From Patescibacteria group bacterium (lineage in GTDB: Bacteria > Patescibacteriota > Patescibacteriia > Patescibacteriales > UBA12465), in NCBI GenBank assembly GCA_041656935.1, contig JBBACQ010000004.1, forward strand, positions 8,557-72,556: a stretch of 64,000 bases of DNA, written 5' to 3'. The number at the start of each line of letters is the position of its first letter. Position 1 is the first letter of the stretch. Positions 3,014-64,000 of the stretch are shown piece after piece. The position numbers and the translations under genes were made by a program. The notes under the pieces were generated by a model. That model worked only from the letters and a program-made list of their open reading frames with translations, was not told the origin of the DNA and ran no database searches.

Positions 3014-3466
3014 TTAATCACAAACTCCTTCTACTGCCATATCTAGAATACCTCCTGGAGTAGCACATTTAACACCGGCAGCCAAACCACCAACTTGTCC
3101 ACCTAAACAGAAAGCTAAAGTATAAGAGGCCCCCGAATCGTCTTGAGTATAGGCGTAAGTATTACTAGCCGAAACACAATCCCCATCAGCTGGTGTTGGA
3201 GCTGTTGGCACGATAGCCATGTAGACATTAGTTCCACTGCCAATTTCTCCACCATCAAAAACGGAAGAAGCTGGATATTCTTGCCAGTCATTAAAATAAA
3301 GTTCAAAGGAGGTTTGAAGTTGTCTAACATCAGCTATTCTTTTAGCATCACGAGCATTCTTTCTAGCATTTTGCAAGGCAACTACAGCTAAGGTAGCTAA
3401 GATACCAATAATAGCTATTACTACCAATAACTCAATCAAGGTAAAACCTTTTTTCTTATTAAACAT
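3014..3466 (-). CDS. Type IV (class III signal) pilin/pseudopilin, paralogue 1.
   Basis: N-terminus [24 protein letters not shown]: prepilin cleavage/methylation motif G|FTLIEL with Glu+5. C-terminal Cys pair (GVKCATPGG...CD). Confidence 0.8.
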
Positions 3467-3563
3467 AGTTTTAAAAAGATATTATTATTTTTATTTAAAC
3501 TAATAAAAATAATAATAAGAAGTATTAAATTTTATATTTTAAATTATCTATAAATATATCTTA

Positions 3564-3592
3564 ATTATACCTAAAAAATAACGAAAGGTCAA
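3564..3592 (-). promoter_or_regulatory. Proximal sigma70-type promoter for pilin paralogue 1. Copy 1 of a 47-nt direct repeat.
   Basis: On the minus strand: TTGACC, 17 nt, TATAAT. Plus-strand ggtcaa at 3587-3592 and attata at 3564-3569. Confidence 0.6.
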
Positions 3593-3622: not shown

Positions 3623-3651
3623 ATTATACCTAAAAAATAACGAAAGGTCAA
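3623..3651 (-). promoter_or_regulatory. Distal duplicate promoter. Copy 2 of the repeat.
   Basis: Identical TTGACC, 17 nt, TATAAT. Plus-strand ggtcaa at 3646-3651 and attata at 3623-3628. Confidence 0.6.
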
Positions 3652-22415: not shown

Positions 22416-23546
22416 TCAAATAATAAACATGGCGTCACCATAACTAAAGAATCTGTATTTTTCATTTATAGCTTCCTGATAAATTTCTAAAGTTTTTTCT
22501 CGACCAATTAAAGCGCTAATTAGGACAATTAAACTAGATTGGGGAAGATGAAAGTTAGTTATTAAACCATCAACCATCTGGAATTTAAAGCCAGGATAGA
22601 TGAAAATGTTGGTAGAAAAAGTAATCGGGTCAACCAATATCCCTGTCGCTCCAGCATCCCTTTTTTTGTCACTCCAATAAAAACTGGAACCAGCGCTCCC
22701 TTGGGCAAGACTCTCCAGTATCCGAACCGAAGTAGTGCCGACAGCAATAATGCGACGACCCTCTTTTTTAGCTTCGATTATTTTCAGTAAAACTTCTTGA
22801 GAAACTTCCGCCTCTTCACTGTGCATCTGATGGTCTAAAATATTCTCGGTTTTAATTGGCGAAAATGTTCCTAAACCCACATGCAAAGTCCCCTCTAATA
22901 TTTCTATACCCTTGCTCTTTATTTTTTTTAAAAGTTCATCGGTAAAATGAAGGCCAGCTGTTGGCACAGCTGACGAACCGATTTTATCATCCTGAGCATA
23001 AACCGTTTGATAATTTTTGATATCATTTTGATTTCGCTCTTCTCTTTTAATATAAGGCGGTAATGGCGTCCAACCAATTTTTTCTATTATTTTTAAAAAA
23101 TCCTGATAATTTTTATTGAAAATTACTTGGCGCACCCCATTATTATCATTATTATCGTTTTTATCATCGCCAAAAATCTGTTCATCATTTTTTATAATTG
23201 TAGCTATCAAATTATCTGGCAAAACCAATTCTGCCCCATCCTTAACTCGTCCACCAATCAAGCACTGCCAAATATTTTTTTCCTGACTAATATTTTTTAA
23301 TAAAAATATTTCTACTTCTCCCCCAGTTTTCTTGTGAGCTTTAAGACGCGCTGAAAAAACTTTAGAATTATTGACGAACAAAACATCCCCAGGGTTCAGA
23401 TAATCAACAATATCGTAAAATTTCTGATGATTAATTTTTTGGGTTCGACGATTGTAAATTAAAAGACGGGAATGATCCCGTGGGCTAACTGGCTCCTGAG
23501 CAATTAGATCGGAGGGCAGATTGTAATTAAAATCGGAGAGTTTCAT
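22416..23546 (-). CDS. queA: S-adenosylmethionine:tRNA ribosyltransferase-isomerase.
   Basis: MKLSDFNYNLPSDLIAQEPVSPRDHSRLL..GDVLFVNNSKVFSARL. Confidence 0.9.
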   Translation of the reverse strand: MKLSDFNYNLPSDLIAQEPVSPRDHSRLLIYNRRTQKINHQKFYDIVDYLNPGDVLFVNNSKVFSARLKAHKKTGGEVEIFLLKNISQEKNIWQCLIGGRVKDGAELVLPDNLIATIIKNDEQIFGDDKNDNNDNNGVRQVIFNKNYQDFLKIIEKIGWTPLPPYIKREERNQNDIKNYQTVYAQDDKIGSSAVPTAGLHFTDELLKKIKSKGIEILEGTLHVGLGTFSPIKTENILDHQMHSEEAEVSQEVLLKIIEAKKEGRRIIAVGTTSVRILESLAQGSAGSSFYWSDKKRDAGATGILVDPITFSTNIFIYPGFKFQMVDGLITNFHLPQSSLIVLISALIGREKTLEIYQEAINEKYRFFSYGDAMFII

Positions 23547-24685
23547 TAAGTAATAAAATCTAAATAATTATTTTTATTTACCGAATTAAATTCAACATTA
23601 TTATAGTTTTCTAAAAAATCTTTTGGCAAATCCTTTTTAATCTTATTCCATTTAAACTCAAAAGCATAAATTTTCCCATCCCTGTCTTCTATTAAGTCTA
23701 TTTCTTTGCCCTCATAATTTCTCCAGAAATAATAATTATTTACTAAATTATCTTTCTTATTTTTTTCGATAACCAAAAAATTTTCAAAAAGAGCTCCAAT
23801 ATCATCTCTATTATCCAAAGAGTTAAATTGAGAAATCAGAGCATTTCTAATTCCATTATCTAAAAAATAATATTTTGATTTAGTATTTATTTCGTTTCTC
23901 ATGTTCCTGCTAAAACCGCTTAAACTTTTAATAACAAATCCTTTTTCTAAAATATCTAAATATCTGTCTACTGTTTTAACATCCAGGGAAACTTTTTGAG
24001 CTAATTCATTCAAAGAAACCAAATTCCCAACCTGAAAAGCTAACAGCTTTAAAAGATTAAGAAGTTTTTTACTAAATTTTATTTTATCTAATTTTAAAAT
24101 ATCTTTCAATAAATAAGAATCAACTAATTCATTTAATAGTGCCACCTTCTCTTCTTTATTTTTGGCCAAAACAACATCTGGGTAAGAACCAAAAATAAGG
24201 AAATCTTCTAATTTTTCTTTTAATTCATACTTATTATACAAGGTAAGCAATTCTGATTGAGAAAATGGATAAAGCGTTATAGTTTTTTTTCTTCCGGTTA
24301 AGGGTTCACCAATTTCTTGAGATAATTCAAAAGATGAGGACCCTGTTACTAAAACATAAATATCCTTTACCTGATCAACTATTATTTTTAAAGCCTTCCC
24401 AATGTTTTTTATTTCTTGAGCCTCGTCAATAACAATTAAATCATAACCATCGACATATTCTTTTATTTTTTTAAAATCTAAGGAGTTTAATAATTTCTGC
24501 AATCTTATATTTTCTCCATTGTCTAGCTTATATTTTAAATCGGTTTTTTCTAAAAAAATATTTAGAAGAGTTGTTTTTCCAACTCTTCTTGGACCATAAA
24601 CAATAACAACTTTATTTTTTTGTAATATTTTATTTAAATCAAACTTCCTAGAAATCATAAATATATTATTAAGATTTAATATCAT
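23546..24685 (-). CDS. AAA+ ATPase of the DUF4143/COG1373 type.
   Basis: Walker A VVIVYGPRRVGKTTLL. Walker B LIVIDEAQ. C-terminal DUF4143-like region. Confidence 0.7.
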   Translation of the reverse strand: MILNLNNIFMISRKFDLNKILQKNKVVIVYGPRRVGKTTLLNIFLEKTDLKYKLDNGENIRLQKLLNSLDFKKIKEYVDGYDLIVIDEAQEIKNIGKALKIIVDQVKDIYVLVTGSSSFELSQEIGEPLTGRKKTITLYPFSQSELLTLYNKYELKEKLEDFLIFGSYPDVVLAKNKEEKVALLNELVDSYLLKDILKLDKIKFSKKLLNLLKLLAFQVGNLVSLNELAQKVSLDVKTVDRYLDILEKGFVIKSLSGFSRNMRNEINTKSKYYFLDNGIRNALISQFNSLDNRDDIGALFENFLVIEKNKKDNLVNNYYFWRNYEGKEIDLIEDRDGKIYAFEFKWNKIKKDLPKDFLENYNNVEFNSVNKNNYLDFIT

Positions 24686-24687
24686 TA

Positions 24688-24716
24688 TTATAGCTCAAAT
24701 CCATAAATTTGTCAAA
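24688..24716 (-). promoter_or_regulatory. Consensus sigma70-type promoter upstream of the ATPase-queA-lepB-hisS gene string.
   Basis: Minus strand TTGACA, 17 nt, TATAAT. Plus-strand tgtcaa at 24711-24716 and attata at 24688-24693. Confidence 0.5.
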
Positions 24717-24782
24717 TTTTATGGAGTAGCACTCCATAAATTAGGTTAAATTTATTCTTTTGTCTTAAGATTTAAAATTACC

Positions 24783-25877: not shown

Positions 25878-25906
25878 TTGACATTATATTTTAAATATGA
25901 TAATAT
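25878..25906 (+). promoter_or_regulatory. Candidate sigma70 promoter for the 26054 gene.
   Basis: TTGACA, 17 nt, TAATAT. Confidence 0.4.
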
Positions 25907-26053
25907 CGACCATTAAAACTAGTTCCTTGAAAACAATCTTTTTTCATTTTAATAACGGTAATATTAGGTTAATTATTTAATTTATTTAATTAGGAAAATT
26001 TAGATAAATTAAATAATTAACTTAATATCTAACCTCTAAAAAAATGAAATGAA

Positions 26054-26911
26054 ATGAAAGAAGTTAAAAAAATTGTTCAAAATTATTTCTTGTCTTTTAG
26101 CGAAGGAACGGGAGCTGGTCATGGTCTTGTTTTTTATTGTCTTTTTTTATTTGCATTATTTATTTTTATTTTTTCACTCCCCTTAACGGAATGCTTGTGT
26201 GATCCCTTCTATAAAACATTCGGAATTATAGCTGGGTCAATCGCTTTTGGCTTCCCTATAGTGAGCTACCTATTGTGCAAAATAACAAGTCGCAAATTTA
26301 TTTCAGTCCCACCAGAAAAAAGAAGTTGTCACGATAGTGCGCTTCTCTTAGTGAGAGACGAGCAGGTCATCTCTAGAATAGGCGTGGCCTTCGGTTATCA
26401 AGAGGAAAAAATAAATCTCCAGAAGCCAATCTGGAAAAAAGGAATAATTTACCAAATAGTCACCGGCTGGAAGGGAGTTGCTTATTGGCACTATTCGAAA
26501 AACGATGAAAATGGAAATACGGAAGATGTATTTGTTATTGAAACCGAAGTTTCGGGCCGACACAAAAACTCCACAATTACAATCCCCGTAAAAATAAAAA
26601 TTTACACAGGAGAAGAATTCGATCCGATTGAAGTTTTTAACAAAATCTCCCCTGGCCCAAAGGAAACTACTATACTCCTCGGGAAGTATCTCCAAGATTT
26701 TTTCGTTAGAATAAACGAAAAAAATCAGGAAGGAATCCAAAAATTAATAACCGAATATGCTGAAATGAAAATTTCTGATTCGGTTTTAATGAGTGAGATA
26801 GTTGATCTCCTAATTTTCCCGGAAAAACTATTTTCCAACATTGAAGATGTCCAGATATGTTTGGACACTCCAATAACCACTTCCTGCAAGGGAATGGTCT
26901 GCGGAAAATAA
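26054..26911 (+). CDS. Hypothetical membrane-associated protein with no recognised domain. G+C is higher than neighbours.
   Basis: ORF with one or two N-terminal hydrophobic helices and multiple Cys. Coding-like composition. Confidence 0.5.
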   Translation: MKEVKKIVQNYFLSFSEGTGAGHGLVFYCLFLFALFIFIFSLPLTECLCDPFYKTFGIIAGSIAFGFPIVSYLLCKITSRKFISVPPEKRSCHDSALLLVRDEQVISRIGVAFGYQEEKINLQKPIWKKGIIYQIVTGWKGVAYWHYSKNDENGNTEDVFVIETEVSGRHKNSTITIPVKIKIYTGEEFDPIEVFNKISPGPKETTILLGKYLQDFFVRINEKNQEGIQKLITEYAEMKISDSVLMSEIVDLLIFPEKLFSNIEDVQICLDTPITTSCKGMVCGK

Positions 26912-26930
26912 CAAAAAATCGGGGAAACCT

Positions 26931-26958
26931 AAAGGAAGCCAACCAGCTTCCTTTTTTA
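26931..26958 (+). terminator. Intrinsic terminator after the 26054 gene.
   Basis: aaaggaagc-caacca-gcttccttt followed by a T-run. Confidence 0.6.
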
Positions 26959-32480: not shown

Positions 32481-33335
32481 TTATCTAACAGAAGAATTTC
32501 TTCTGTTTTTTTCCAGTGCTTTAGCGATTAAGTAGGGGTCCACCTTTGAAGGTGTTTGGGCCGGAGATTTTCGGCATCCTCGGCAATATAAGTAACCAGC
32601 TGAATGAGCGAACCACTCTTTTTCCTCGCCAACCTTTTTTACTACTTCCAAAACCTCTGGGACATCAGCTCTGGCATTGTTTTTGACCAGCACTCCGAGA
32701 TTATTTCCGTCCACATAGATGACGGCTTCATATTTTCCACTCTTAAGAAGTTTATTTCTGGCCGAAAAAGCTAGGTCTTCTTTTATCACAATAGCAGTTT
32801 TACCTACCGAAATAATAGAAGAATAAAAGCTCTTTTTATCCTCTTGCTTTCTTTTGTTTAAGAGGAACATCCCGTCCAGAATTTCGAACATTCTTCGGCA
32901 AACAATCTCATCGTTGTTTTTGTGGAAAGATTGGAGTGACCGTAAGGCGAATGACAAGGACAAAAAAGGAATTTCTCCCTTTGGATAATCTTGATGATCC
33001 TCCAAGTCAACCATAGAACCGGAATCATTCCGGTCAACGAAGATAACCAAATTCCTAAGAATTTCCTTGGTTTCCTCACCACCATATTTCTGAACTATTT
33101 CCTTAAAACAAGAGTGGACCTTACCACTCCGATCTCTTCGGCCTTTGATACCATATCCCCCGGCATTAATATCCAGGGCTAAATCATCAAATTTAATACC
33201 ACGACCATCCCAAGAAGCGGGAACAAAATCTATCGGAGTTTCTTTTTTAGTTATAAATCTCAAAGCAAACCAAACCGACACCACCGCATCGATATCAACC
33301 GACACATGAGTCAGAATTCTTTTGACTTCTTTCAT
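32481..33335 (-). CDS. Hypothetical protein, tentatively a degenerate DHH-like phosphoesterase. G+C higher than neighbours.
   Basis: N-terminal THVSVDIDAVVS resembles DHH motif I. A later EDHQD could be a degenerate DHH motif. Weak evidence. Confidence 0.35.
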   Translation of the reverse strand: MKEVKRILTHVSVDIDAVVSVWFALRFITKKETPIDFVPASWDGRGIKFDDLALDINAGGYGIKGRRDRSGKVHSCFKEIVQKYGGEETKEILRNLVIFVDRNDSGSMVDLEDHQDYPKGEIPFLSLSFALRSLQSFHKNNDEIVCRRMFEILDGMFLLNKRKQEDKKSFYSSIISVGKTAIVIKEDLAFSARNKLLKSGKYEAVIYVDGNNLGVLVKNNARADVPEVLEVVKKVGEEKEWFAHSAGYLYCRGCRKSPAQTPSKVDPYLIAKALEKNRRNSSVR

Positions 33336-37252: not shown

Positions 37253-40200
37253 TTACACATAAGTAACGCTCGCTACCATATCATTTTCGTCTTTAAAGCG
37301 CATAATTCGGACTCCTTGAGTATCACGACCCAATTCATTAACTGTTTTATAAGGCAAACGAATAACCTGACCTTTATCAGAGATAATTATTAAATCCTTG
37401 CCCTCCATGGTATCTTTGTTTATAACAAAAGCATTACTAATTTTACCAGTCTTAGTGGTCACTTTAGCTGTTCGAATACCACTACCACCTCGACCCTGAA
37501 CCTTATACAAATCCAAATCCGTCCTCTTACCATAACCCTGATCCATAATGGTCAAAATTTGATAATTCCGTTTTACTCCTTTCTCAACCTTGATAATTCC
37601 CATTCCAACAACAATATCATCTTTCTTTAATTTAATACCTCGAACACCGGAAGCATTCCGGCCCATATCACGCACCTCTTTTTCAGAAAATCTTATCGCT
37701 TGGCCATTAGCAGTTATTAAACTAATATGATCAAGCCCGGAAGTTGGTTTTGACCAAATCAATTTATCATCATTCTTTATTTTTATCGCTATTAAACCAC
37801 TGCGACGAACATTAGAGAAAGAATCAATTTTAACTTTTTTAACCAAGCCTTTTTCTGTAGCGAAAAATAAATAATTATAACCGGCAATTTTATCTAGCGG
37901 TAAGATAGAAGTAATTTTTTCTCCACCAATTAACTGCAAGAAATTAACAATCGGAGTTCCTTTAGCCGTACGAGAGGCTTGCGGTATTTCATGAGCCTTT
38001 AATTGGAATACTCGCCCCTTAGTAGTAAAGAATAAAATATCATTATGGGTTTGAGTAATAAACATAAAATCAACCGAATCTTCTTCTTTGGTTGTTAAAC
38101 CGATAACACCCTTACCCCCACGAGCTTGAACCTTAAAAGTATCAGGATCTAATCGCTTAATATACCCATCCCGAGTCATCATAATCATAGTTTCTTCATT
38201 GGGTATTAAATCTTCAATATTAAAATTCTTAACACCATGAGCTACTACTTGAGTTCGACGCTCGTCCCCAAATTTTTCTCCCAATTCAGCAATCTCAGTT
38301 TTAATAATATTTCTAATTTTAGTTTTAGAAGCTAAAATTGCCTCTAACTCTTTAATCAATTTTAATTTTTCTTTTAATTCATCTTCAATTTTAATACGTT
38401 CCAAATTAGCCAAACTCTGCAATCTCATTTCCAAAATAGCCACCGCCTGTCTTTCGGACAACTTAAATCTCTTTATTAAACTTTCCTTAGCTACGTCTTT
38501 ATCTTTTGAAGCTTTAATAACTTTAATAACTTCGTCAATATTTTTTAAAGCAATCATTAAACCTTCCAAAATATGAGCTCTGTCCTTGGCCTTATTTAAT
38601 TCAAATTCAGTCCGACGATAAATTACATCTTGACGATGTTTAATATATTCCTCTAAAACCATTTTTAAAGTTAATACTTTAGGTTGAATTCCATCAATTA
38701 AGGCTAAAATATTAACATGGAAGGTGCTTTGTAAAGCAGTATTTTTGTACAAGCTATTTAATATTTTTTTCGGATAAGAATCTTTTTTCAAATCTAAAAC
38801 AATGCGAACGCCCTCTTTATCAGACTCGTCTCGTAAACCTCTAACTCCATCTAACTTTTTATCTTTTACTAAATCAGCAATTTTTTCTACCAAAGTCGCC
38901 TTATTAACCTGATAAGGAAGCTCGGTAATAATTATTTGGAAATTTCCATTTTTCTCCTCTTTAATATCAGCCCTTCCTCGACAAACAATTCCACCCTTAC
39001 CGGTAGCATAGGCATTCAAAATATCTTTTTTATCATAAATAATTCCACCGGTTGGGAAATCAGGCCCTTTGACATGCTCCATTAAATCCTCCACCGTAGA
39101 GTCTGGTTGGTCAATTAATAAATTTATTGCTCCTAATAATTCTTTTAGATTATGAGGCGGAATATTAGTGGACATACCGACCGCAATTCCCATCCCTCCG
39201 TTTAGGAGTAAATTAGGTAATTTAGCCGGTAAAACTTGCGGTTCTTTTTGTGAGCCATCATAATTAGGAATAAAATTAACGGTATCTTTATCAATGTCAA
39301 ATAATAATTCTTCTGTAATACTAGCTAATTTTGCTTCAGTATTATGATTTATAAAACCATTAGCTACAAAAGAGTGACAAGTGCTCCCTACTTTAATAGA
39401 ATAAACATTTTCTTTTTCGACCTGAGTTTCAACTAGCTTCACCTGATTAAAAAAGTAATGATTTTCTAATAAGTAATCGACCATTTTCAAGTCAGAAGAA
39501 TTTAAAATGCTCTTTAATTTACAATAATTTTTTCTTAAGCTATTATAACGATCAAAATTATTTTTAACTATAAAACTATTTTTATAATTTAATCTTAAAT
39601 AATTGTTTAAAAATGGAATAAAATCATTATGGCTTAAACGAGTAGTATTAATCTCCGATATCTTAGATAAAATCTCTCTTTTACGTTGAGAAAAAAAGTT
39701 AATATTTTTTTGAAAATTTACAATACTATCAACTCCCGAGATTATTAATTTATAACAAGCATTTCTCTTATCCTGATAAGGCGAAGTGGTAACTACACCA
39801 AAATTTAATAAAACTGTTTTCAGCTGATTGATAAGTTTTTTGCTTTTAGAATTATAGTTTAATTCAATTGATTTTCCGCCGTGTCTTTGGTCTTTTTTAA
39901 AAGAAACCGAACCATCACCCTCAAATAAACCTCGTAAAAAAGAACTTATTACTGCTCGGCTAGACATTAAAACTGAAAAAGGAATTTCTTTTTTATCAGA
40001 TAATTTAGTAGCCAAGCCAATTTCTTGTAAAAATTCCACAATATTTTTTTCATAAATACAAAGCTCCGGACAATTACCCTTCAGAACTCTTTCATATAAT
40101 TTAACTCCCGGAAATAACTGAGAAATTATATTTCGAACCTTGCCATAAAAATCTTTATCTGAATTACAGAAGAAAAATTTGTTTTGGTGGAAAGACCCTT

Positions 40201-41212
40201 CTGATACTAAAGCTCCTAAAAGAAAAGCTAGGTCTTTATTCATTTTTTTAGGTAGGGTAATTTTTTTACTCTTAGGGCTTTCTAAAGGAAAAAACTTTTC
40301 TAAACTTAAATCATTTTTAGAAAATAGCGAAGCCGAACGGCTTAAGGGCAAGAAATCATTTTTATTGATATTTTCTAAAGCTTTCCAATAAAAATAGGGC
40401 TGACCAAATTCATTTAAACCCCATAATAATAACGGATGATTAAATGAACCCCGAATTTCATAGCCCTGCTCAGTGGTTATTTTTATAATTGAATGCTTAC
40501 CAGAATCGAAAAATTTAGTAGCTGGCTTAACCTTCCCTTTATAATTTAAAATATTTATTTTTATTTTATCTCCACTTTTAGGGGCAAGATTTTTTATTTC
40601 CACTATCCCTTTATCGGTTAAAAGTAGAGTATCACCAGAAACACAATATCTCATCGCGGCGGCATTATCACCATCCATCGAACCAAAGTTTCCCTGACCA
40701 CGAACCAAAGGATAACGCATTGAGAAATCCTGAGCCATACGAACCATAGAATCATAAACAGCACTATCACCATGCGGATGGTATTTACCTAAAACTTCTC
40801 CCACCACAGTAGCTGACTTACGAAATTTAGCGCTAGCCTTTAAACCAATATCCCACATAGCATACAAAATACGACGATGAACTGGTTTCATACCATCACG
40901 GACGTCAGGCAAGGCGCGAGAAACAATAACGCTCATGGCGTAATCTAAATAAGAAGAACTCATCTCTTCGCTAATAGACTGATTTTGTACTAAACCGTAT
41001 TCGGTTTGACGACGACCATTACCATTAACTGCTGAATCAACCACGGCTTCATCACCATTAAGATCAGCCTCAATAACTACCGCATCTTCTTTAATAACGG
41101 GAGCTTTTTTTTCAATTATATCTTTCTTAACAACCTTTTTGTTTTTAGAAGTCTCTGCGCTGGAAGAAACTTTTTTGGGTGTTTTATCTTTTTTGTCTTT
41201 TTCTTTTTTCAT
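37253..41212 (-). CDS. gyrA: DNA gyrase subunit A interrupted by an in-frame intein. Also carries a roughly 70-aa Lys-rich N-terminal extension.
   Basis: [32 protein letters not shown]. Active-site AAMRY followed by an intein. After the intein, TEAKL... resumes the GyrA sequence. C-terminal beta-pinwheel repeats. Confidence 0.9.
39341..40645 (-). mobile_element. Intein (435 aa) with a LAGLIDADG homing-endonuclease domain, inserted immediately after the catalytic Tyr of GyrA.
   Basis: Begins Cys (AAMRY|CVSGDTLLL) and ends ..VANGFINHN|T. LAGLIDADG-like blocks [14 protein letters not shown] and [15 protein letters not shown]. Coordinates verified codon by codon. Confidence 0.8.
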
Positions 41213-43094: not shown

Positions 43095-43276
43095 AAAATT
43101 AGATTATTTATTATTCTTAAACATAGAAAAAGCCAATTTCTCAGCTTTTTTACCTTTTTAAATACAGCTTAATTTAGACTATAATTATACATTAATTATA
43201 GCAAAAATTAAAGTTTCGGTCAATGCTAAAATGGTGTTTTTCTAGTTTTAAATATCTTTTTATCTATTAGGGGAAA

Positions 43277-43303
43277 TAAAAAAAGGGTATAGATATACCC
43301 TTT
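43277..43303 (-). terminator. Intrinsic terminator after the 43324 gene.
   Basis: agggtat-agat-ataccct preceded on the plus strand by an A-run (a T-run on the minus strand). Confidence 0.55.
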
Positions 43304-43323
43304 ATACTTTTGGAGAGGAATGG

Positions 43324-44511
43324 TTAGCGATATGACCGCCACTCATCCCATTTGAGAAATTTAGATTGGCTTGATTTTTCAACTAAGCCTAGGTCTAAAA
43401 TTTCCGTAGTTCTTTCTCCGTGCCCATAGACGATTGTCATGACGGGCCCTGATTTTAAACGTGCTTTGATCCTCTGGCGAGCTGGAATCACCATCCCAAC
43501 CCACTTGATTCCTGAAAATGCATCAATCTGAACCCTTTCAGAAGACCTTAAGGTGTTTTTTGGTGCTATATACTTTTCCGGTACGAAAATTGTAACATCT
43601 TCGCTACGGGTATTGTATAGGTTGACCAATGTTGTTTTGCCGGCAACCTCGCTTCCCTTAGCAAAAAACAAGGGATTGAAAGTTCCTTCATCGAAAATAA
43701 AGCTTCCATTTCTGACAATCAAGGTAACTGGAATTTCCGGAGAAATCCCCGTTGGAAGTTTCACTCTGGCAATGAAATCATAGGCTCCATTTTTGGGCAT
43801 ACGAGAAGCCAAAACTTTGATTTCATCTTTGCCACCGGGTGCTAGGGCAAACGAAACGCCCAATTCCTCGCTGTAAACAACGCATTCGTAATTAACTTCC
43901 GTACTTACTTTTAAAGTAAGACTTGGTATTCCGAGATCCTCGTCAGTGATAGTTGCCCTGAACAAAGGTCTTTCCCCAGCGAACTGAGAATAATCTTTGT
44001 CCTTTTCGATGACCGGCTCCAGCAAGAAAACCAAATTTCTTTTGATCTTCTTACCATCAAGTTCAAACTCGGCAAAACAGGTCACGTTTTTTGCACGTGA
44101 AGTGTTAATAACGAGATCAAACAAACCAGCCTCGATCATGGCGGTCGTTTTATCGGCTCCTTCGTCCATGTCGTTCATAAAGTTCAACAAGGGCAAAAGA
44201 TCTCCCGTACGAAACGAGAAGTCGAAATCAGCGATGAGTGCATTCGATTGTGGAAAGAATTCCACTTTCGACACAATACTCCCCCAATTACCCGAAAGAT
44301 CCATTTTTTTATACTCGGCCGGTGTGAGTTTCAAATTCTGAGCGAACTCAGATTTGTTCTCAATAATAATCTTGGCCAACATTGGGGCCTTGACCCCGGC
44401 TTTGTAGTCATTAAATGACTTGGCATCTTTGGTTTCCTGGGCAAAGCCAGAAAAAGATACTGCAACAAAAGATACTGCAACAATAACCAAACTAATTAAT
44501 ACTTTCCTCAT
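43324..44511 (-). CDS. Secreted hypothetical protein (395 aa) with an N-terminal signal peptide. G+C markedly above genome background.
   Basis: MRKVLISLVIVAVSFVAVSFSGFAQE signal-like N-terminus. No recognised domain. Confidence 0.55.
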   Translation of the reverse strand: MRKVLISLVIVAVSFVAVSFSGFAQETKDAKSFNDYKAGVKAPMLAKIIIENKSEFAQNLKLTPAEYKKMDLSGNWGSIVSKVEFFPQSNALIADFDFSFRTGDLLPLLNFMNDMDEGADKTTAMIEAGLFDLVINTSRAKNVTCFAEFELDGKKIKRNLVFLLEPVIEKDKDYSQFAGERPLFRATITDEDLGIPSLTLKVSTEVNYECVVYSEELGVSFALAPGGKDEIKVLASRMPKNGAYDFIARVKLPTGISPEIPVTLIVRNGSFIFDEGTFNPLFFAKGSEVAGKTTLVNLYNTRSEDVTIFVPEKYIAPKNTLRSSERVQIDAFSGIKWVGMVIPARQRIKARLKSGPVMTIVYGHGERTTEILDLGLVEKSSQSKFLKWDEWRSYR

Positions 44512-44549
44512 GATTTGTTTCCTCCATTTAAATTTAATTTTTAATAATT

Positions 44550-44599
44550 TTAATTGTTAAGCTAAACAACATCTAAATATTAGCTAACTTAACAATTAA
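44550..44599. promoter_or_regulatory. 50-nt imperfect palindrome in the 5' leader of the 43324 gene.
   Basis: TTAATTGTTAAGCTAA-n18-TTAGCTAACTTAACAATTAA. A second copy lies at 45432-45482. Confidence 0.5.
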
Positions 44600-44643
44600 A
44601 ATATTAATAATGCATGTAAAAGTACTTTTTGTTTTAATGTAGA

Positions 44644-44672
44644 ATTATAGCATATATATTTTTTTTTGTCAA
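44644..44672 (-). promoter_or_regulatory. Consensus sigma70 promoter for the 43324 gene.
   Basis: Minus strand TTGACA, 17 nt, TATAAT. Plus-strand tgtcaa at 44667-44672 and attata at 44644-44649. GGAGG RBS 9 nt before ATG. Confidence 0.6.
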
Positions 44673-44837
44673 GGCTTTTCCCAAATAACCAAATTACTGC
44701 TGTTTTAAGGGCTAAAATAGGGCTAAAGAGAACAAATCTAATAAAAACTTAAAATATAAAATAATGAATAAACTATTTTAAAAAATAATAATTTTAAAAC
44801 AATTACTCTGAAAACATCCTCCCATTAACCAGACAAA

Positions 44838-44866
44838 TAAAAAAAGCAGAAGTTATTCTGCTTTTA
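44838..44866 (-). terminator. Intrinsic terminator after the 44884 gene.
   Basis: aagcagaa-gtta-ttctgctt with A-run/T-run. The 29-nt sequence is identical to that at 45683-45712. Confidence 0.65.
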
Positions 44867-44883
44867 GACTGTTTGGGCGGAGA

Positions 44884-45402
44884 CTAAAAGTCTCCCAACA
44901 TGTCCTCGAACATTGTCTCGAGGTCATCAAAGGAAAAACTACTACTTCCACCTTTTTTCTTGGTCTTCGACTTTGGCTTATCCGAAGAAGCGATTGCTCC
45001 TTCAGTTTTTTTGGCCTCAGCTTCAGCCGTTTTTTTCTTTTGTTGGTTTAATTGCCAATATAAATTGGCAACTCTCTTTTTCTCGGCTTCTCCAGCCTTA
45101 ATCAGAGAGTCCTGAATTCTTTTGCTTTCAATATCGGCCCTTTGAAGATCGCCAATGTCGTTTTTAAGACCATTGATAACTCCATCTGTTTCAATAAACT
45201 TATCGACATGAGCGTCCAAACGATCTGAGTTCAGGTTTATTTTCTTATTTAATAACGAGTCATTCCGATACAAAGCTGTATCAGCCTTATCAAGACGATA
45301 AACCTCTTGCTTGACATTTTTCTTGCCACTTGAAAATCCTATTATCACTACCAGCAAAAAAACAACGGACACTACGGCCCCAATAATCAGATTTTTGTTC
45401 AT
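44884..45402 (-). CDS. Hypothetical single-pass membrane protein with a coiled-coil ectodomain and Lys-rich acidic tail (172 aa).
   Basis: N-terminal TM IIGAVVSVVFLLVVIIGF. No recognised domain. Confidence 0.5.
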   Translation of the reverse strand: MNKNLIIGAVVSVVFLLVVIIGFSSGKKNVKQEVYRLDKADTALYRNDSLLNKKINLNSDRLDAHVDKFIETDGVINGLKNDIGDLQRADIESKRIQDSLIKAGEAEKKRVANLYWQLNQQKKKTAEAEAKKTEGAIASSDKPKSKTKKKGGSSSFSFDDLETMFEDMLGDF

Positions 45403-45431
45403 CTTATTTTAATTTTAAAGGTTATAAAAAT

Positions 45432-45482
45432 TTAATTGTTAAACTAAACAATATCTAAAATATTAGCTAGTTTAACAATTAA
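45432..45482. promoter_or_regulatory. Second copy of the leader palindrome.
   Basis: TTAATTGTTAAACTAA-n15-TTAGCTAGTTTAACAATTAA. Confidence 0.5.
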
Positions 45483-45527
45483 AAATTTTAACCACCTTGG
45501 TAAAGATCTAAATAATTTTAATAGGTA

Positions 45528-45556
45528 ATTTTAACATATAAAAAAATATTTGTCAA
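45528..45556 (-). promoter_or_regulatory. Sigma70 promoter for the 44884 gene.
   Basis: Minus strand TTGACA, 17 nt, TAAAAT. Confidence 0.55.
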
Positions 45557-45684
45557 TAGTGCATAAATACCAATAAAAACAAGCTTTTTTATCTATTCCT
45601 CAAATTAATAGAAAATTTGTTTTTTGAAAAAAGATTAATCGAAAAGAGCAAAGCGAAGTCGTTTTTAGCCTAAAAAGAGAAAAA

Positions 45685-45712
45685 TAAAAAAAGCAGAAGT
45701 TATTCTGCTTAT
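45685..45712 (-). terminator. Intrinsic terminator after the 45732 gene. Identical to the 44838 copy.
   Basis: aagcagaa-gtta-ttctgctt. Confidence 0.65.
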
Positions 45713-45731
45713 AATTTGTCAAAAAAGAACT

Positions 45732-46283
45732 TTATCTGTCTTTTTTATAAAAGCGTTTCGGCCACCAGGGCGAAGCAGTTGGTGCTTTTTTCACGGGCAG
45801 ATTTTTAGAATTAGAATCTTCAACAGAAACCTCTTCAAAAAACCTTTCTGATACATCAGGCACAATTGGTTTTTCAATAACCTCTTTTTGATTATTTTTC
45901 CCAAGCTCTTTTTCCAAAGCCAAAATTTTTCGGTTCATTTTGCGATAAAGAGAAGCCTGCTCCTTCTCTATTTTTTCCAGCTTCTCCAGTACGACACTAA
46001 ATATCGTATCATGCTGATTCTTAGAAAAATTTAATTCCTCTACTTCTTTTTTAAAGGAATTTATTTTTTCCTCTAAATCGAAGTGGGAACCCCCGACTTC
46101 ATTTCTTAACTCAAACCTGAAATCTTGATTTTCTTTTTCGACCTCAGCTTTAACTCCTCCAATTTGAGAGCTTACGCTACCTGTCAACTTTGAAAAACCA
46201 ATTATTATGGCGATAGTTATCACCAAAATTCCACCAACAATTACCAGCACCAACGTTTTCCCCTTTTTTTCTCCTTCCGACAT
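45732..46283 (-). CDS. Hypothetical single-pass membrane protein with a coiled-coil region (183 aa).
   Basis: TM LVLVIVGGILVITIAIIIGF. Coiled-coil heptads. Confidence 0.5.
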   Translation of the reverse strand: MSEGEKKGKTLVLVIVGGILVITIAIIIGFSKLTGSVSSQIGGVKAEVEKENQDFRFELRNEVGGSHFDLEEKINSFKKEVEELNFSKNQHDTIFSVVLEKLEKIEKEQASLYRKMNRKILALEKELGKNNQKEVIEKPIVPDVSERFFEEVSVEDSNSKNLPVKKAPTASPWWPKRFYKKDR

Positions 46284-46332
46284 AATTCCTCCTATTTAAA
46301 ATTGTTAAAAAAACTAATAATAATGATTTTAG

Positions 46333-46361
46333 ACATTAATACATTTTAAAAAATAAGTCAA
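46333..46361 (-). promoter_or_regulatory. Candidate promoter for the 45732 gene, divergent from the next promoter.
   Basis: Minus strand TTGACT, 17 nt, TAATGT. Confidence 0.4.
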
Positions 46362-46371
46362 TAGCTACCCC

Positions 46372-46400
46372 TTGACACAATTAATTAAATATGCTATAAT
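46372..46400 (+). promoter_or_regulatory. Consensus sigma70 promoter for the 46513 gene.
   Basis: TTGACA, 17 nt, TATAAT. About 105-nt leader. Confidence 0.6.
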
Positions 46401-46512
46401 TAAGAATCGTAATAATCGTACCTTTAAAAAGATTAAAATTTAACGAGAAGATTAAAAAGTTCTTTTTTTAATTTTTTAGTTAAATTTTAATTAACCTATA
46501 AAAAATCAAGAA

Positions 46513-47058
46513 ATGGAAACATACGAACTGAAACAGTTGATAAGAAAAGACGGAGAGGTAATCGGAGCAGAATTCCAAAACGGACAGAAGTTAATGATCT
46601 CCCAGTGGGACCATAGCACCCTGGCCGAATTCGAAAACGTAAGTTTTCGTACTCCGGTAAAAGAGGGTAAATTTTTACAATTCGTGAATTCTCCCTTAAC
46701 CCTGAAGCCTGACGGCAATATTTGTCAGATACCTTCATATTGGAGGTACGGAGTGAAAATTGGTGGTCAAATCATTACCAGAACATTTCGCTTCTCTTGT
46801 GACGAAGGAAGTAAAAAAATAAATCAACTTCCCTTCGGCACAGATGTTGTCGGAAGGGCCAAAATTTGCCTTTCCACCAACAAAAAAACTGGAGAAAAGC
46901 GAGTGATAGTGGATTATTTCATCTACAGCGACCAAAAAGTGGTTGCCCAAAATGAAGTAAAAATCGGAGGAAAAACCAAGCCCTCCACCATCTGGACCGC
47001 ACCCATCCCCAAAACCGAAAGCAACATCGTTGTAAATAAGGTTGAACCCAAAAAATAG
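46513..47058 (+). CDS. Hypothetical protein (181 aa) with no signal peptide. G+C above background.
   Basis: ORF with an internal VKIGG repeat. No recognised domain. Confidence 0.5.
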   Translation: METYELKQLIRKDGEVIGAEFQNGQKLMISQWDHSTLAEFENVSFRTPVKEGKFLQFVNSPLTLKPDGNICQIPSYWRYGVKIGGQIITRTFRFSCDEGSKKINQLPFGTDVVGRAKICLSTNKKTGEKRVIVDYFIYSDQKVVAQNEVKIGGKTKPSTIWTAPIPKTESNIVVNKVEPKK

Positions 47059-47074
47059 ATCTCGGGTCTCAACC

Positions 47075-47109
47075 AAAAAAGCCTGTACAAAATACAGGCT
47101 TCTTTTTTT
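47075..47109 (+). terminator. Intrinsic terminator.
   Basis: aagcctgta-caaaa-tacaggctt followed by tcttttttt. Confidence 0.7.
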
Positions 47110-47185
47110 ATCTAAATTAGAGATATATTATAAACTTTATTTCGAAAACTATTCTCAGCTTCAAATCTTTTTTTCTCCTCTGCCT

Positions 47186-61963: not shown

Positions 61964-62359
61964 ATAATTTTTTATTAAATTTAATAATATATCTAACTTA
62001 TTATACTAAACTAAAGAGCTTTTTCAAAATTTTGTAAAAATTTTGTAAAGGCCAAGTAGAAACGTCCCATCTAGTTAATTATTAAGGGTTACTAATCTCG
62101 TATCTATATTATACCATATTTTAAAAAATATGTCAAAAAAAATTAATCATTTAACCTATTTAATAATCTTCTTTTTAGTTAATAAATTGGTTTTTTAAAC
62201 CATCATCCTTAATATCAAATTATACATATTAAAAAACAATAATCCAATTCTTTATTTAACTAAAAATATGAAAAATTCCCTATCAACCCACAAATAAAAA
62301 AATTTATGAATTAAATAAGAAAGGAAAGGTTTGATATAATCGCCCCTTTCCTTTTAACC

Positions 62360-64000
62360 CTAAATTAACCCAGCTTTGCGAAGTGCCTCAGCCATAGTAT
62401 CGTTAGAATTCGAAAGGTTGTTATTATAACTTCCTCTCTCCTCCTTACGGGCTACTGGCGTAGCATTTTCTCCAAAATGATATTCGTACACATAGTACTT
62501 CACATCATTGGGATCAGCTCCGCAAAAAAAATCTGAATCTTCGCCCATCGCGCTCCAAGCTTCTTCACAATTAGCGCGAGAACGGGAACGACCACAAGTG
62601 AGTTCGTGCTCATCCAATCGCCAAGTTTCGATTTTGGCAACGTTGGCAATAAACTCTAACGTACGATCGATATCTCCCGAGAAAGCCTCCAGTAAACGGT
62701 CGGGAACATTATTGCTTTTAATTAGCTCATTCCGTTCCTGCTGGCGCACCTCGAAGAGATGAGATAAATTCACAATCAAACCTTCTGCCTGACGACAGAT
62801 TTTTTCTACTTCCACAAATTCAGCTTTTTGCAAAGCGTTACTTGCTTGGTAGATTTGATTACGAATTTCTTCACACTCTTGACGGATAAAATTTCCACCA
62901 CCAAGCTCAGACAAAGTCTTGTCAAAACTTTCCTCTAACCGAACGATAAATGCTTGCGCATTTTTATGTTCATTGTAAAGTTGAATTTTGATTTCCTCGG
63001 CCTTAACTTTTAGAATCTCAACGCGTTCGGCAGAATTTTCAAGGGTTAGCCCCTCGATCATTTCTGCTTTTAAAGCATCGAGAAGAGTGCGGAGCTTCTG
63101 CCCGGTCTCGGATAATCCTCCCCAGTATCCACCGCTACAAAACGGTTCTTCCTGAGGGATTGTAAGCAAACTAGAGATTTGACTCTCAAAATTGATCACT
63201 AGGTTACGCTGTGCTCGCTCAATTTCCTCAAGACGAGCTCTTTCAATTATCTGGCGATGTTCGCTTAAAGTGCGAGTAGCGCCATTGAAAGTCAGCTTTA
63301 CCTCTCGACCGGACGGAAGAAGTAGCTCTTCCTCCTTAGCTTTATGGAAAAATTCCTCTGTAACATCAATCTTGGCGTTAAAATTGCTCCAAGAGTCTGA
63401 ATAAGTTACAAAAAATTCTTTTCCATTAACCTCAATCACCTCAGGATTTCCTGCTTCAATAACAGTAACCTCTTCGGTTGATATTAGGTCACTCAATTTA
63501 ATTTTTAACTCTTCAGGGTTTAATCCGAGAGTTTCAAACTGAGTTAAGCTAAGAACATGATAAGGCTCCAGTACCTTCGCGTACTTCTCGCGAATGGTAT
63601 CACTATCTTTTTTGGAGATAGTTCCACCACTACGAATATACAGCGTATTGTACTGGCTCAAAATTTCGGAGTTGCTCCGATAGAGTTCATTTACAACTTC
63701 CGAAGAGGTGTAAGTACTCATCATTGCATTCACGAAAATTTTGAAGGCCTCGGCAGACCACAGTGCTGGCTTAGACACCCGAGCAATTTCTTGGCCGTTG
63801 AAGATTGTAATGTGGTCTTCAACAACACAAGCCCGCACACTGTCCCAGTGAAGGTTTTTAATCTCCTTTGAAACTAAGTGCGGGGCGATCTCGGCGAGCC
63901 AACTGGGCTCAACTTTTGATGCCATGCTTACCAGGTTAAGAGTCATAGAGCCTCTCCTAGTTTGAATCTGCAGATCAAAAGGAATTCCCACGACCCAATC
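62360..64000 (-). CDS. C-terminal portion of a larger protein, tentatively HrpA-like DEAH helicase with a long C-terminal extension. Frame open to the window edge. G+C far above background.
   Basis: Frame stays open upstream of the GTG/Met at 63991 to position 64000. N-proximal ..VEPSWLAEIAPHLVSKE resembles the DEAH-helicase OB-fold PEWL..APH segment. About 480 aa of helical extension follows. Confidence 0.45.
   Translation of the reverse strand, partial: DWVVGIPFDLQIQTRRGSMTLNLVSMASKVEPSWLAEIAPHLVSKEIKNLHWDSVRACVVEDHITIFNGQEIARVSKPALWSAEAFKIFVNAMMSTYTSSEVVNELYRSNSEILSQYNTLYIRSGGTISKKDSDTIREKYAKVLEPYHVLSLTQFETLGLNPEELKIKLSDLISTEEVTVIEAGNPEVIEVNGKEFFVTYSDSWSNFNAKIDVTEEFFHKAKEEELLLPSGREVKLTFNGATRTLSEHRQIIERARLEEIERAQRNLVINFESQISSLLTIPQEEPFCSGGYWGGLSETGQKLRTLLDALKAEMIEGLTLENSAERVEILKVKAEEIKIQLYNEHKNAQAFIVRLEESFDKTLSELGGGNFIRQECEEIRNQIYQASNALQKAEFVEVEKICRQAEGLIVNLSHLFEVRQQERNELIKSNNVPDRLLEAFSGDIDRTLEFIANVAKIETWRLDEHELTCGRSRSRANCEEAWSAMGEDSDFFCGADPNDVKYYVYEYHFGENATPVARKEERGSYNNNLSNSNDTMAEALRKAGLI

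Follow-up and report, generated by a model that had tools for sequence, protein, structure and literature searches.

A syntenic four-gene module of one Patescibacteria clade, with hairpin leaders and mosaic divergence

The four genes and their cassettes

We analysed a 64,000-nucleotide stretch of a Patescibacteria group bacterium (contig JBBACQ010000004.1; hereafter the window, 31.6% G+C), and in particular an island of four genes, labelled I1 to I4, that lies in it between glyQS and a gene for a metallo-beta-lactamase (MBL) hydrolase. The gene string around the island reads tyrS-like, argS and glyQS on one side, and MBL hydrolase, ndk, the gene of a 168-aa protein and an intein-containing gyrA on the other. 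The genomes nearest in glyQS are metagenome-assembled genomes of the Patescibacteria or Parcubacteria group, and one I1 homologue comes from a Patescibacteria group bacterium; retrieved contigs that bear homologues are given L-numbers below. A first-pass annotation of the window had described the island as an acquired or rapidly evolving module of orphan genes, and the four open reading frames (ORFs) lie exactly where it had put them. The parts of the locus are as follows.

43282-43303, minus strand: I1 intrinsic terminator, a bidirectional hairpin (AAAGGGTATATCTATACCCTTT) followed by a T-run
43324-44511, minus strand: I1 gene, 395 aa, secreted
44541-44607, minus strand: I1 5'-leader hairpin of about 29 bp (core arms 44547-44564 and 44585-44602; foot about 30 nt before the ATG)
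44614-44625, minus strand: I1 leader box GTACTTTTACAT, one mismatch against GWWCYTTDAMAA, between promoter and hairpin, located by alignment on the -10 element
44644-44672, minus strand: I1 promoter TTGACA-17-TATAAT with TG extension, 12/12 matches
44842-44865, minus strand: I2 intrinsic terminator, with a 22-mer identical to that of the I3 terminator
44884-45402, minus strand: I2 gene, 172 aa, single-pass membrane protein
45426-45488, minus strand: I2 5'-leader hairpin of about 23-25 bp
45528-45556, minus strand: I2 promoter TTGACA-17-TAAAAT with TG extension, 11/12 matches
45691-45710, minus strand: I3 intrinsic terminator
45732-46283, minus strand: I3 gene, 183 aa, single-pass membrane protein
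46333-46361, minus strand: I3 putative weaker promoter TTGACT-17-TAATGT, read from the sequence; the same type occurs in the I3 orthologues of L087 and L095
46372-46400, plus strand: I4 promoter TTGACA-17-TATAAT with TG extension, 12/12 matches, divergent from I3
46418-46429, plus strand: I4 leader box GTACCTTTAAAA, an exact match to GWWCYTTDAMAA
46431-46492, plus strand: I4 5'-leader hairpin of 28 bp, foot 21 nt before the ATG
46513-47058, plus strand: I4 gene, 181 aa
47079-47101, plus strand: I4 intrinsic terminator

Each gene forms a cassette of its own: an extended -10 sigma70 promoter and a conserved leader box come first, followed in most cassettes by a hairpin of 20-34 bp, and then by the gene itself with its intrinsic terminator. 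Sites that match the consensus promoter with at most one mismatch number eight in the whole window, against 1.0 expected, and four of the eight fall within 43195-46400. The three near-consensus promoters reported for I1, I2 and I4 are borne out, each with a TG extension; the broader claim of a promoter for every gene holds at consensus strength for these three genes, and for I3, for which none had been reported, we find only the weaker candidate listed above. All four genes have the intrinsic terminators ascribed to them, terminator-like sites in the island region number 16 against 4.6 +/- 2.2 expected, and the terminator described as byte-identical in two genes is the 22-mer of I2 and I3, which occurs at two places in the window with 0 expected.

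Alignment on the -10 elements reveals a shared upstream design: TTGACA, an A/T-rich spacer ending in ...TATGC, TATAAT and, some 5-6 nt later, GTTAAAA, followed by a box fitting GWWCYTTDAMAA and then, in most cassettes, by the long hairpin. The box pattern was defined post hoc, after the sequences had been seen, and is not enriched across the window (four matches, three expected); only its leader position is notable, two of the four matches lying at the expected distance within two cassette leaders. The GTTAAAA/box design was not found at the MBL and pilin promoters. Cassettes of the I3 type differ consistently: in them the -10 element is weak, the leader spans about 50 nt and has no hairpin, and the Shine-Dalgarno site is strong.

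The leaders of I1 (about 125 nt) and I2 have some 70 nt in common at 80-93% identity, and each forms a hairpin of 23-29 bp, the two being homologous; the palindrome that had been noticed in two genes is this one, present at just these two places in the window, with 0 expected. Beyond the window, 18 of 24 module leaders across genomes have a predicted helix of at least 20 bp (20-34 bp), against 1 of 21 control leaders. The 3' foot of the hairpin always lies 21-40 nt before the start codon, and shuffle z-scores reach -5 to -8.7. The hairpin sequences themselves are unrelated between genes and genomes, with length and position kept; even between the window and a sister strain (L001) the I1 leader sequence differs, with a long stem in both. 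Among the stems of L084, L090 and L091, pairing is kept through 1, 1 and 6 double-sided changes and several changes from G-C to G-U. Rfam holds no family for these hairpins.

A fifth cassette of the same design, its leader again predicted to contain a helix of at least 20 bp, lies outside the island at 25878-26954 on the plus strand.

25878-25906, plus strand: promoter TTGACA-17-TAATAT with TG extension
25922-25933, plus strand: leader box, exact, GTTCCTTGAAAA
25961-26028, plus strand: leader hairpin of 29 bp
26054-26911, plus strand: orphan ORF, 285 aa, G+C at third codon positions (GC3) 0.35, no family match
26931-26954, plus strand: terminator

The window contains two more exact TTGACA-17-TATAAT sites, at 24687-24715 and 62108-62136, both on the minus strand. 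The former stops 2 nt short of the annotated ATG of ORF 23546-24685 and partly coincides with an imperfect palindrome of 32 nt (24696-24762), which suggests either a leaderless mRNA or a mis-called start codon. A pilin gene at 3014-3466 (minus strand) has a tandemly duplicated promoter, TTGACC-17-TATAAT, in identical 29-mers at 3564-3592 and 3623-3651, and a perfect 16-bp A/T-only palindrome in its leader at 3480-3517.

Synteny, codon usage and divergence

Eight or more related genomes have the module in this slot, its orientation and regulatory layout unchanged (L084/85, L087/88/89, L090, L091, L093/94 and L095). The order there is glyQS (minus strand), an I4-like gene (plus), one or two small single-pass membrane proteins (minus) and an I1-like gene (minus), followed by MBL, ndk, the small protein and gyrA. 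Promoters and terminators are kept gene by gene in L084 and L087, and the family of I4, the most deeply conserved member of the slot, is also represented at this position in L006 and L007, which are more distant. No mobility genes (integrase), flanking tRNA or border repeats were found at the island, the only tRNAs of the window lying at 2499-2935, and no phage relatives of its proteins were found in PHROG, BFVD or IMG/VR, plasmid collections not being among those searched. The proposal that the genes had been acquired by insertion between the MBL gene and glyQS consequently fails, given a same-slot module in at least eight genomes, orthologues that share the GC3 excess described below, and the lack of mobility or phage signs. 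A conserved syntenic position in relatives is what the first-pass annotation had itself said would count against acquisition; that position is found, although the families that occupy it are not the housekeeping families it had in mind.

More distant relatives (L003, L004 and L006-L008, glyQS 76-80% identical) keep the same flanks and have other genes in the slot, indicating that its content has turned over on a longer timescale. These genes encode a ComEC-type MBL-domain membrane protein, a lysine/alanine-rich histone-like protein of 60-70 aa, an unrelated secreted protein or a distant I4 relative, and other orphans (L003 11816-13818; L004 11782-13780; L006 11499-13393; L007 11586-13924; L008 11976-12863). 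The I1 profile did not detect the secreted proteins in this slot of two of these contigs, L003_325 and L004_349. The L003 protein, of 325 aa and unrelated to I1, has a 12/12 promoter with TG extension and a GAACTTTAAAAA leader box, without a long hairpin.

Two further variations were seen within the clade. In the lineage of L084, L090 and L091 the middle membrane protein has N-terminal proline-rich repeats (PAPAPTPP or PQPQ), and near-identical contigs encode versions of 207 and 186 aa, which looks like repeat-length variation (L084 8896-9519; L085 4090-4650; L090 4934-5686; L091 4846-5550); in L091 the gene caller placed a spurious antisense ORF on the proline repeat. The gyrA gene of the window (37253-41212, minus strand) encodes 1319 aa, and is split by an insertion, the alignment to relatives without an intein being interrupted from residue 190 to residue 625; Intein_splicing and LAGLIDADG domains are present in the orthologues of L090 and L091, and the orthologues of L084 and L087 (852-855 aa) lack an intein, so that intein presence varies within the clade.

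In base composition the island stands out chiefly at the codon level. Total G+C is 42.3, 38.7, 36.2 and 41.9% for I1, I2, I3 and I4, against 34.1% for the MBL gene and 34.3% for glyQS, and GC3 is 0.43, 0.40, 0.34 and 0.46, against 0.19-0.30 in nearly all of the other 45 ORFs of the window. The shift raises C over T endings, G over A endings and four-fold sites alike, and the spacers between the island genes have no G+C excess (0.18-0.31). The contrast that had been counted by eye, 38-45% against about 30%, is therefore real and sharpest at GC3, and a uniform profile, which would have spoken against it, was not seen; it was overstated for total G+C, however, with flanks nearer 34% and I3, at 36.2%, below the quoted range. 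Orthologues elsewhere also have high GC3 (L084 0.62/0.51/0.51; L090 0.61/0.53/0.61; L091 0.59/0.50/0.60; L087 0.37/0.40/0.39) among neighbours at 0.20-0.37, and within I1 it is raised both in a segment recently shared with the sister strain (residues 61-177, 0.51) and in the divergent one (0.39). Since the excess persists across lineages whose I1 proteins are 36-40% identical, is restricted to coding sequence and is present in old and recent I1 segments, it is a maintained codon-level property of the island genes and not the trace of a foreign donor. Raised GC3 was also seen in two further ORFs without a Pfam family, 32481-33335 (minus strand, 0.375) and 62360-63991 (minus strand, 0.40), the latter reaching the window edge and having a weak HrpA-like NCBIfam match only; G+C-richer orphans are thus not limited to the island.

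The module is far more divergent than its surroundings. Against L084 and L087, the flanking proteins are 77-91% identical (glyQS 84-85%, gyrA about 90%, MBL 84-85%), I1 is 36-40% and I4 44% identical, and I2 and I3 are undetectable by tblastn, their orthologues being recognisable only by position, architecture and C-terminal tails (acidic-aromatic in I2, W-F-KKD in I3). The comparison with the sister strain, represented by contigs L001 and L083 from one sample (SRR27710297), resolves how this divergence is distributed. Synonymous divergence (dS) is 0.06-0.15 in the flanks, with a ratio of nonsynonymous to synonymous divergence (dN/dS) of 0.03-0.19, and 1.0-1.4 over I1, I2 and I4 as wholes; within I1 it is 0.09 for residues 61-177 and 3.1 (dN 0.10) for residues 178-395, and in I4 it is 1.9 for residues 37-181. 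A sliding identity profile switches abruptly inside genes, between divergent segments (43281-43980, 44331-44855, 44936-45129, 45230-45423 and 46622-47068) and near-identical ones (43981-44330 and 45424-46620).

This pattern is the signature of homologous exchange of old alleles at sub-genic scale, since saturated synonymous divergence beside flank-like segments, together with low dN/dS, speaks against local hypermutation or a diversity-generating retroelement. It also bears out the earlier description of the module as rapidly evolving, and it places divergent alleles between conserved flanks with identifiable breakpoints, as is characteristic of hypervariable replacement loci. I3 alone has no recombinant segment; its 12.5 nonsynonymous and 2.5 synonymous changes compare with 4 and 29 in the flanks (Fisher p = 2.5e-6), giving a dN/dS of 1.3 that, on only 15 changes, is significantly above that of the flanks and not above 1. 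A retroelement target was also considered in its own right and rejected, as the neighbouring gyrA, ndk, MBL, glyQS and argS are all accounted for, there is no long coding direct repeat, and most of the divergence is synonymous and extends over 450-700 nt. The sister-strain assembly breaks within the island, one contig ending 305 nt upstream of I1 and the other starting in the I2 terminator region, which fits strain heterogeneity or an assembler confused by repeated leader and terminator sequences.

The proteins and the interpretation of the module

Scans of I1-I4 against Pfam, NCBIfam, PHROG and PADLOC gave nothing above threshold, in agreement with the earlier remark that none contains a recognisable motif, and sequence profile searches of the PDB gave no match. 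The signal peptide of I1 is evident by inspection as an N-terminal hydrophobic segment with a probable cleavage site at ...GFA|QE, the A|QE site being conserved across the family; the mature protein has about 41.6 kDa and a pI of 6.2. The I1 family is tiny and lineage-restricted: an exhaustive profile search of 1.84 billion representatives yields 17 clusters; a word-indexed homologue search with I1 alone finds one protein, and the profile is needed to recover the family. One marginal match of the family profile (E = 3.4e-4), to a Big_9/He_PIG/cadherin-repeat protein, agrees with an Ig-like domain around residues 185-270. The signal peptide also contains a perfect 15-nt tandem duplication (AAAAGATACTGCAAC twice, 44452-44481, minus strand) that yields VAVSF-VAVSF; the sister strain has no repeat there.

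The single membrane helices of I2 and I3 are likewise evident by eye, and the coiled coils that had been ascribed to the two proteins come down to sub-threshold matches to coiled-coil families. I2 combines a helical, coiled-coil-like region with a stretch rich in lysine and a C-terminal tail of acidic-aromatic character (SSFSFDDLETMFEDMLGDF), which is similar to that of its positional orthologue L087_163, and I3 combines a region of the same kind with a basic-aromatic C-terminus (PWWPKRFYKKDR). BLASTP finds no significant similarity between the two, and local phmmer searches give weak links only, with L087_163 as the bridge. I4 is basic (pI 9.45) and all-beta and lacks both signal peptide and membrane helix; matches to its fold are weak, OB/S1-like and in no case significant, and its relatives comprise four proteins in a word-indexed search and three loci in a scan of JGI metagenome contigs, two of them already known. 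Two further identities were considered for the locus and rejected: a phage Rz-like spanin or lysis cassette, for which there were only weak, composition-driven coiled-coil matches (E = 2e-4; phrog_6631 4e-5, 9e-3) and no lysis genes nearby, and a defence system, for which PADLOC gave no significant match.

Taking these observations together, we consider the island to be, probably though by no means certainly, a vertically inherited, lineage-specific envelope module of one Patescibacteria clade, built of highly expressed monocistronic cassettes, fast-evolving and possibly S-layer-like. Strong promoters, the hairpin and G/C-ending codons would give each component a high, individually set output; the hairpin would function at the transcript level, either by protecting the 5' part of the mRNA from 5'-end-dependent decay or, its stem being at least 20 bp long, by offering RNase III a processing site; and selection for expression or for mRNA stability may lie behind the G/C-ending codons. 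A major surface protein of S-layer-like kind is a plausible role for I1; I2 and I3, bitopic with helical ectodomains or endodomains, could be its membrane partners, and the divergently transcribed I4 would be cytoplasmic. Fast divergence and the sub-genic exchange of alleles by homologous recombination are what exposed surface components would be expected to show if phages, hosts or neighbours press for diversity. The role in host interaction that the first-pass annotation had tentatively raised is likewise conjectural.

Several expected properties of S-layer genes are found in I1: a Sec signal peptide, by inspection, on a protein whose mature mass of 41.6 kDa falls within the typical range of about 40-200 kDa, and, in silico, a strong promoter (12/12), a long structured 5' untranslated region (UTR; about 125 nt with a 29-bp hairpin) and a strong terminator. 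For the codon shift of I1, the window offers no ribosomal-protein or EF-Tu reference set against which to judge whether it is typical of highly expressed genes, and the pilins are unshifted. The leaders, for their part, have what is expected of an RNase III substrate or 5'-UTR stabiliser, namely RNA stems of at least 20 bp that are conserved in structure on the transcribed strand. The descriptions "envelope/secreted" and "highly expressed" in the first-pass annotation are upheld in silico, by the signal peptide, membrane helices, extended -10 promoters, leaders, terminators and codon shift. What the sequences show directly is the anatomy of the locus, its synteny, evolutionary rates and mosaicism, and the strand-specific conservation of hairpin structure; expression level, RNA mechanism, surface location and function are inferred.

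A number of observations weigh against this interpretation. Pilin genes, in which high expression is expected, have no GC3 excess, which weakens the argument from expression to codons, and the rise of G-ending codons alongside C-ending ones is also compatible with biased gene conversion. The divergent segments of I1, I2 and I4 have a dN/dS of 0.03-0.15, a sign of deep allelic divergence only and not, directly, of positive selection. I1 is modelled as mostly beta-strand with Ig-like sandwich domains, at low confidence (predicted local distance difference test score 62) and with generic fold matches, and neither Pfam, NCBIfam nor PDB searches identified in it a known cell-wall-binding, S-layer, anchoring or assembly domain (SLH, CWB2 etc.). 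For I2 and I3 the positive-inside rule gives no clear membrane topology, so that their helical parts could be cytoplasmic. Finally, the hairpin is not obligatory, being missing from I3 of the window and from the I2-, I3- and I4-type cassettes of L087.

The first alternative concerns the cause of the G+C excess, which could be a by-product of recombination: at a hotspot locus, GC-biased gene conversion would lift GC3 whatever the expression level. We regard this as unlikely, yet as a serious contender. The mosaic structure attests to repeated recombination, C-ending and G-ending codons are both up, as is G/C at four-fold sites, and I3, alone without a recombinant segment between sister strains, also has the lowest GC3; the parallel rise of G-ending codons and the unshifted pilins both favour gene conversion as the cause. 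It is difficult to reconcile, however, with spacers in the same hotspot that stay at 18-31% G+C, or with a GC3 that is higher in the recently shared segment of I1 than in the divergent one, and these two observations favour expression-linked selection.

A second alternative concerns the proteins, which might form an intracellular or membrane scaffold of bitopic coiled coils, division- or cytoskeleton-like, that evolve fast merely through weak constraint. The ambiguous topology of I2 and I3, the cytoplasmic I4, the low dN/dS of the divergent segments and the tolerance of coiled-coil proteins to substitutions would all suit such a scaffold. We nevertheless think it quite improbable, as the signal peptide of I1 is clear and family-wide, conservation is higher in promoters and leaders than in coding sequence, and weak constraint alone does not explain allelic mosaicism at dS above 1 beside flanks at dS below 0.15.

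A third would have the leader palindromes work as DNA, be they operators bound by a dimeric regulator, cruciforms, or selfish repeats akin to miniature inverted-repeat transposable elements. In favour of this, TTAACAATTAA half-sites in the leaders of I1 and I2 make up 4 of the 5 copies in the window (0.33 expected), and the palindrome has evidently been copied between cassettes. In 15 of 16 cases, however, folding is more favourable for the sense-strand RNA than for the antisense, with a mean difference of -8.5 kcal/mol (Wilcoxon p = 6e-5), in a test that comprises about nine independent hairpin sequences and carries some bias from the picking of hairpins on their sense-strand folds, a limit that belongs with the reservations above. 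G.U pairs number 63 when the sense strand is folded and 7 when the antisense is, and such pairs would become A.C mismatches in the other arm of a cruciform. This asymmetry in folding points to hairpins that act in the transcript rather than in duplex DNA. Operators or mobile repeats would also sit poorly with palindromes that are unrelated in sequence between genes, genomes and even sister strains (I1 of the window and of L001) while keeping length and position, and that occur just twice in 64 kb, and we hold a role at the DNA level to be a poor prospect.

Finally, a recent genomic island of phage, plasmid or other foreign DNA, with G+C taken from its donor, would account for the atypical composition (GC3 0.34-0.46 against 0.19-0.30), the orphan proteins and the different slot genes of L003, L004 and L006-L008, but is very improbable and largely refuted by synteny: the module sits at one site in at least eight genomes, with orthologues down to 36-44% identity, the GC3 excess recurs in all of them in coding sequence only, where amelioration would have erased a donor signal by now, and integrase, tRNA, border repeat and PHROG, BFVD or IMG/VR relatives are all missing.

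Returning to an inherited envelope module, a bolder joint version of it can be formulated, which we offer as a speculation of low probability. The promoter-box-hairpin unit would be an undescribed class of cis-regulatory RNA in Patescibacteria that marks out a small regulon of envelope genes with very high expression and keeps its members in step, with I1 as the S-layer or major surface protein of the clade and I2 and I3 as its anchors; the OB-like I4 would bind the hairpins or the acidic tail of I2 and so tune output, and the whole would be hypervariable through recombination under phage or host pressure.

Relation to known systems

Our literature searches found no description of this module, and none of the described protein or RNA families includes it. 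In the way it works the locus resembles both a hypervariable surface locus of the replacement type and an expression cassette of the S-layer type. That genomes of the candidate phyla radiation (CPR, or Patescibacteria) contain fast-evolving orphan genes for surface proteins is to be expected; what is new here is the conserved leader hairpin with its box, and the finding that what looked like an island is ancient. Little is known of the cell covering of these bacteria or of how they control gene expression, and the locus provides candidate surface or interaction proteins for one clade. That an "island" of atypical G+C should prove ancient and maintained also calls for caution in composition-based detection of horizontal transfer in AT-rich reduced genomes, and the leader hairpin and box could be a general high-expression signal, useful for engineering or for the annotation of CPR genomes.

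RNase III processing hairpins and 5' mRNA stabilisers are familiar from the leaders of phages T7 and lambda, from E. coli ompA and from B. subtilis aprE. The leaders described here resemble them in placing a long, near-perfect RNA stem in the 5' UTR upstream of a free ribosome-binding site, the length of at least 20 bp suiting RNase III; classical 5' stabilisers, however, lie at the extreme 5' end, whereas the stems of the island begin about 25-50 nt past the predicted transcription start.

Replacement-type hypervariable surface loci, such as the Clostridioides difficile S-layer cassette and O-antigen loci, are flexible islands exchanged by homologous recombination through conserved flanks. 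The island shares with them a fixed slot, conserved flanks, deeply divergent alleles in otherwise near-identical strains and mosaic breakpoints. It differs in that exchange is sub-genic, in segments of 200-700 bp rather than whole cassettes, and in that its gene families are new and confined to one small clade. Conceptually similar, without homology, is the VARTIG module of Thermococcales, a lineage-specific module with an Ig-domain protein whose C-terminal part is hypervariable by inter-genome recombination, and with a presumed role in conflict or recognition (Makarova et al. 2021, PMC8416519). VARTIG proteins are large and multi-Ig, with variable downstream genes arranged like polymorphic toxin systems, whereas the island has a small, stable gene set in independent cassettes.

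In Lactobacillus, finally, S-layer genes are driven by efficient promoters, their mRNA is stabilised by a long 5' UTR with secondary structure, and their codon usage is biased (PMC3666127). Cassettes of the slpA type have in common with I1 a monocistronic organisation, a Sec-secreted product of about 40 kDa, a very efficient promoter and a strong terminator, as well as a long structured 5' UTR, off-average codon usage and little sequence conservation between species (PMC3666127). Unlike slpA, I1 has no recognised cell-wall-binding or self-assembly domain; three or four neighbouring genes follow one design, membrane and cytoplasmic proteins included; and the leaders have a conserved box ahead of stems that are A+U-rich and, at 20-34 bp, far longer.

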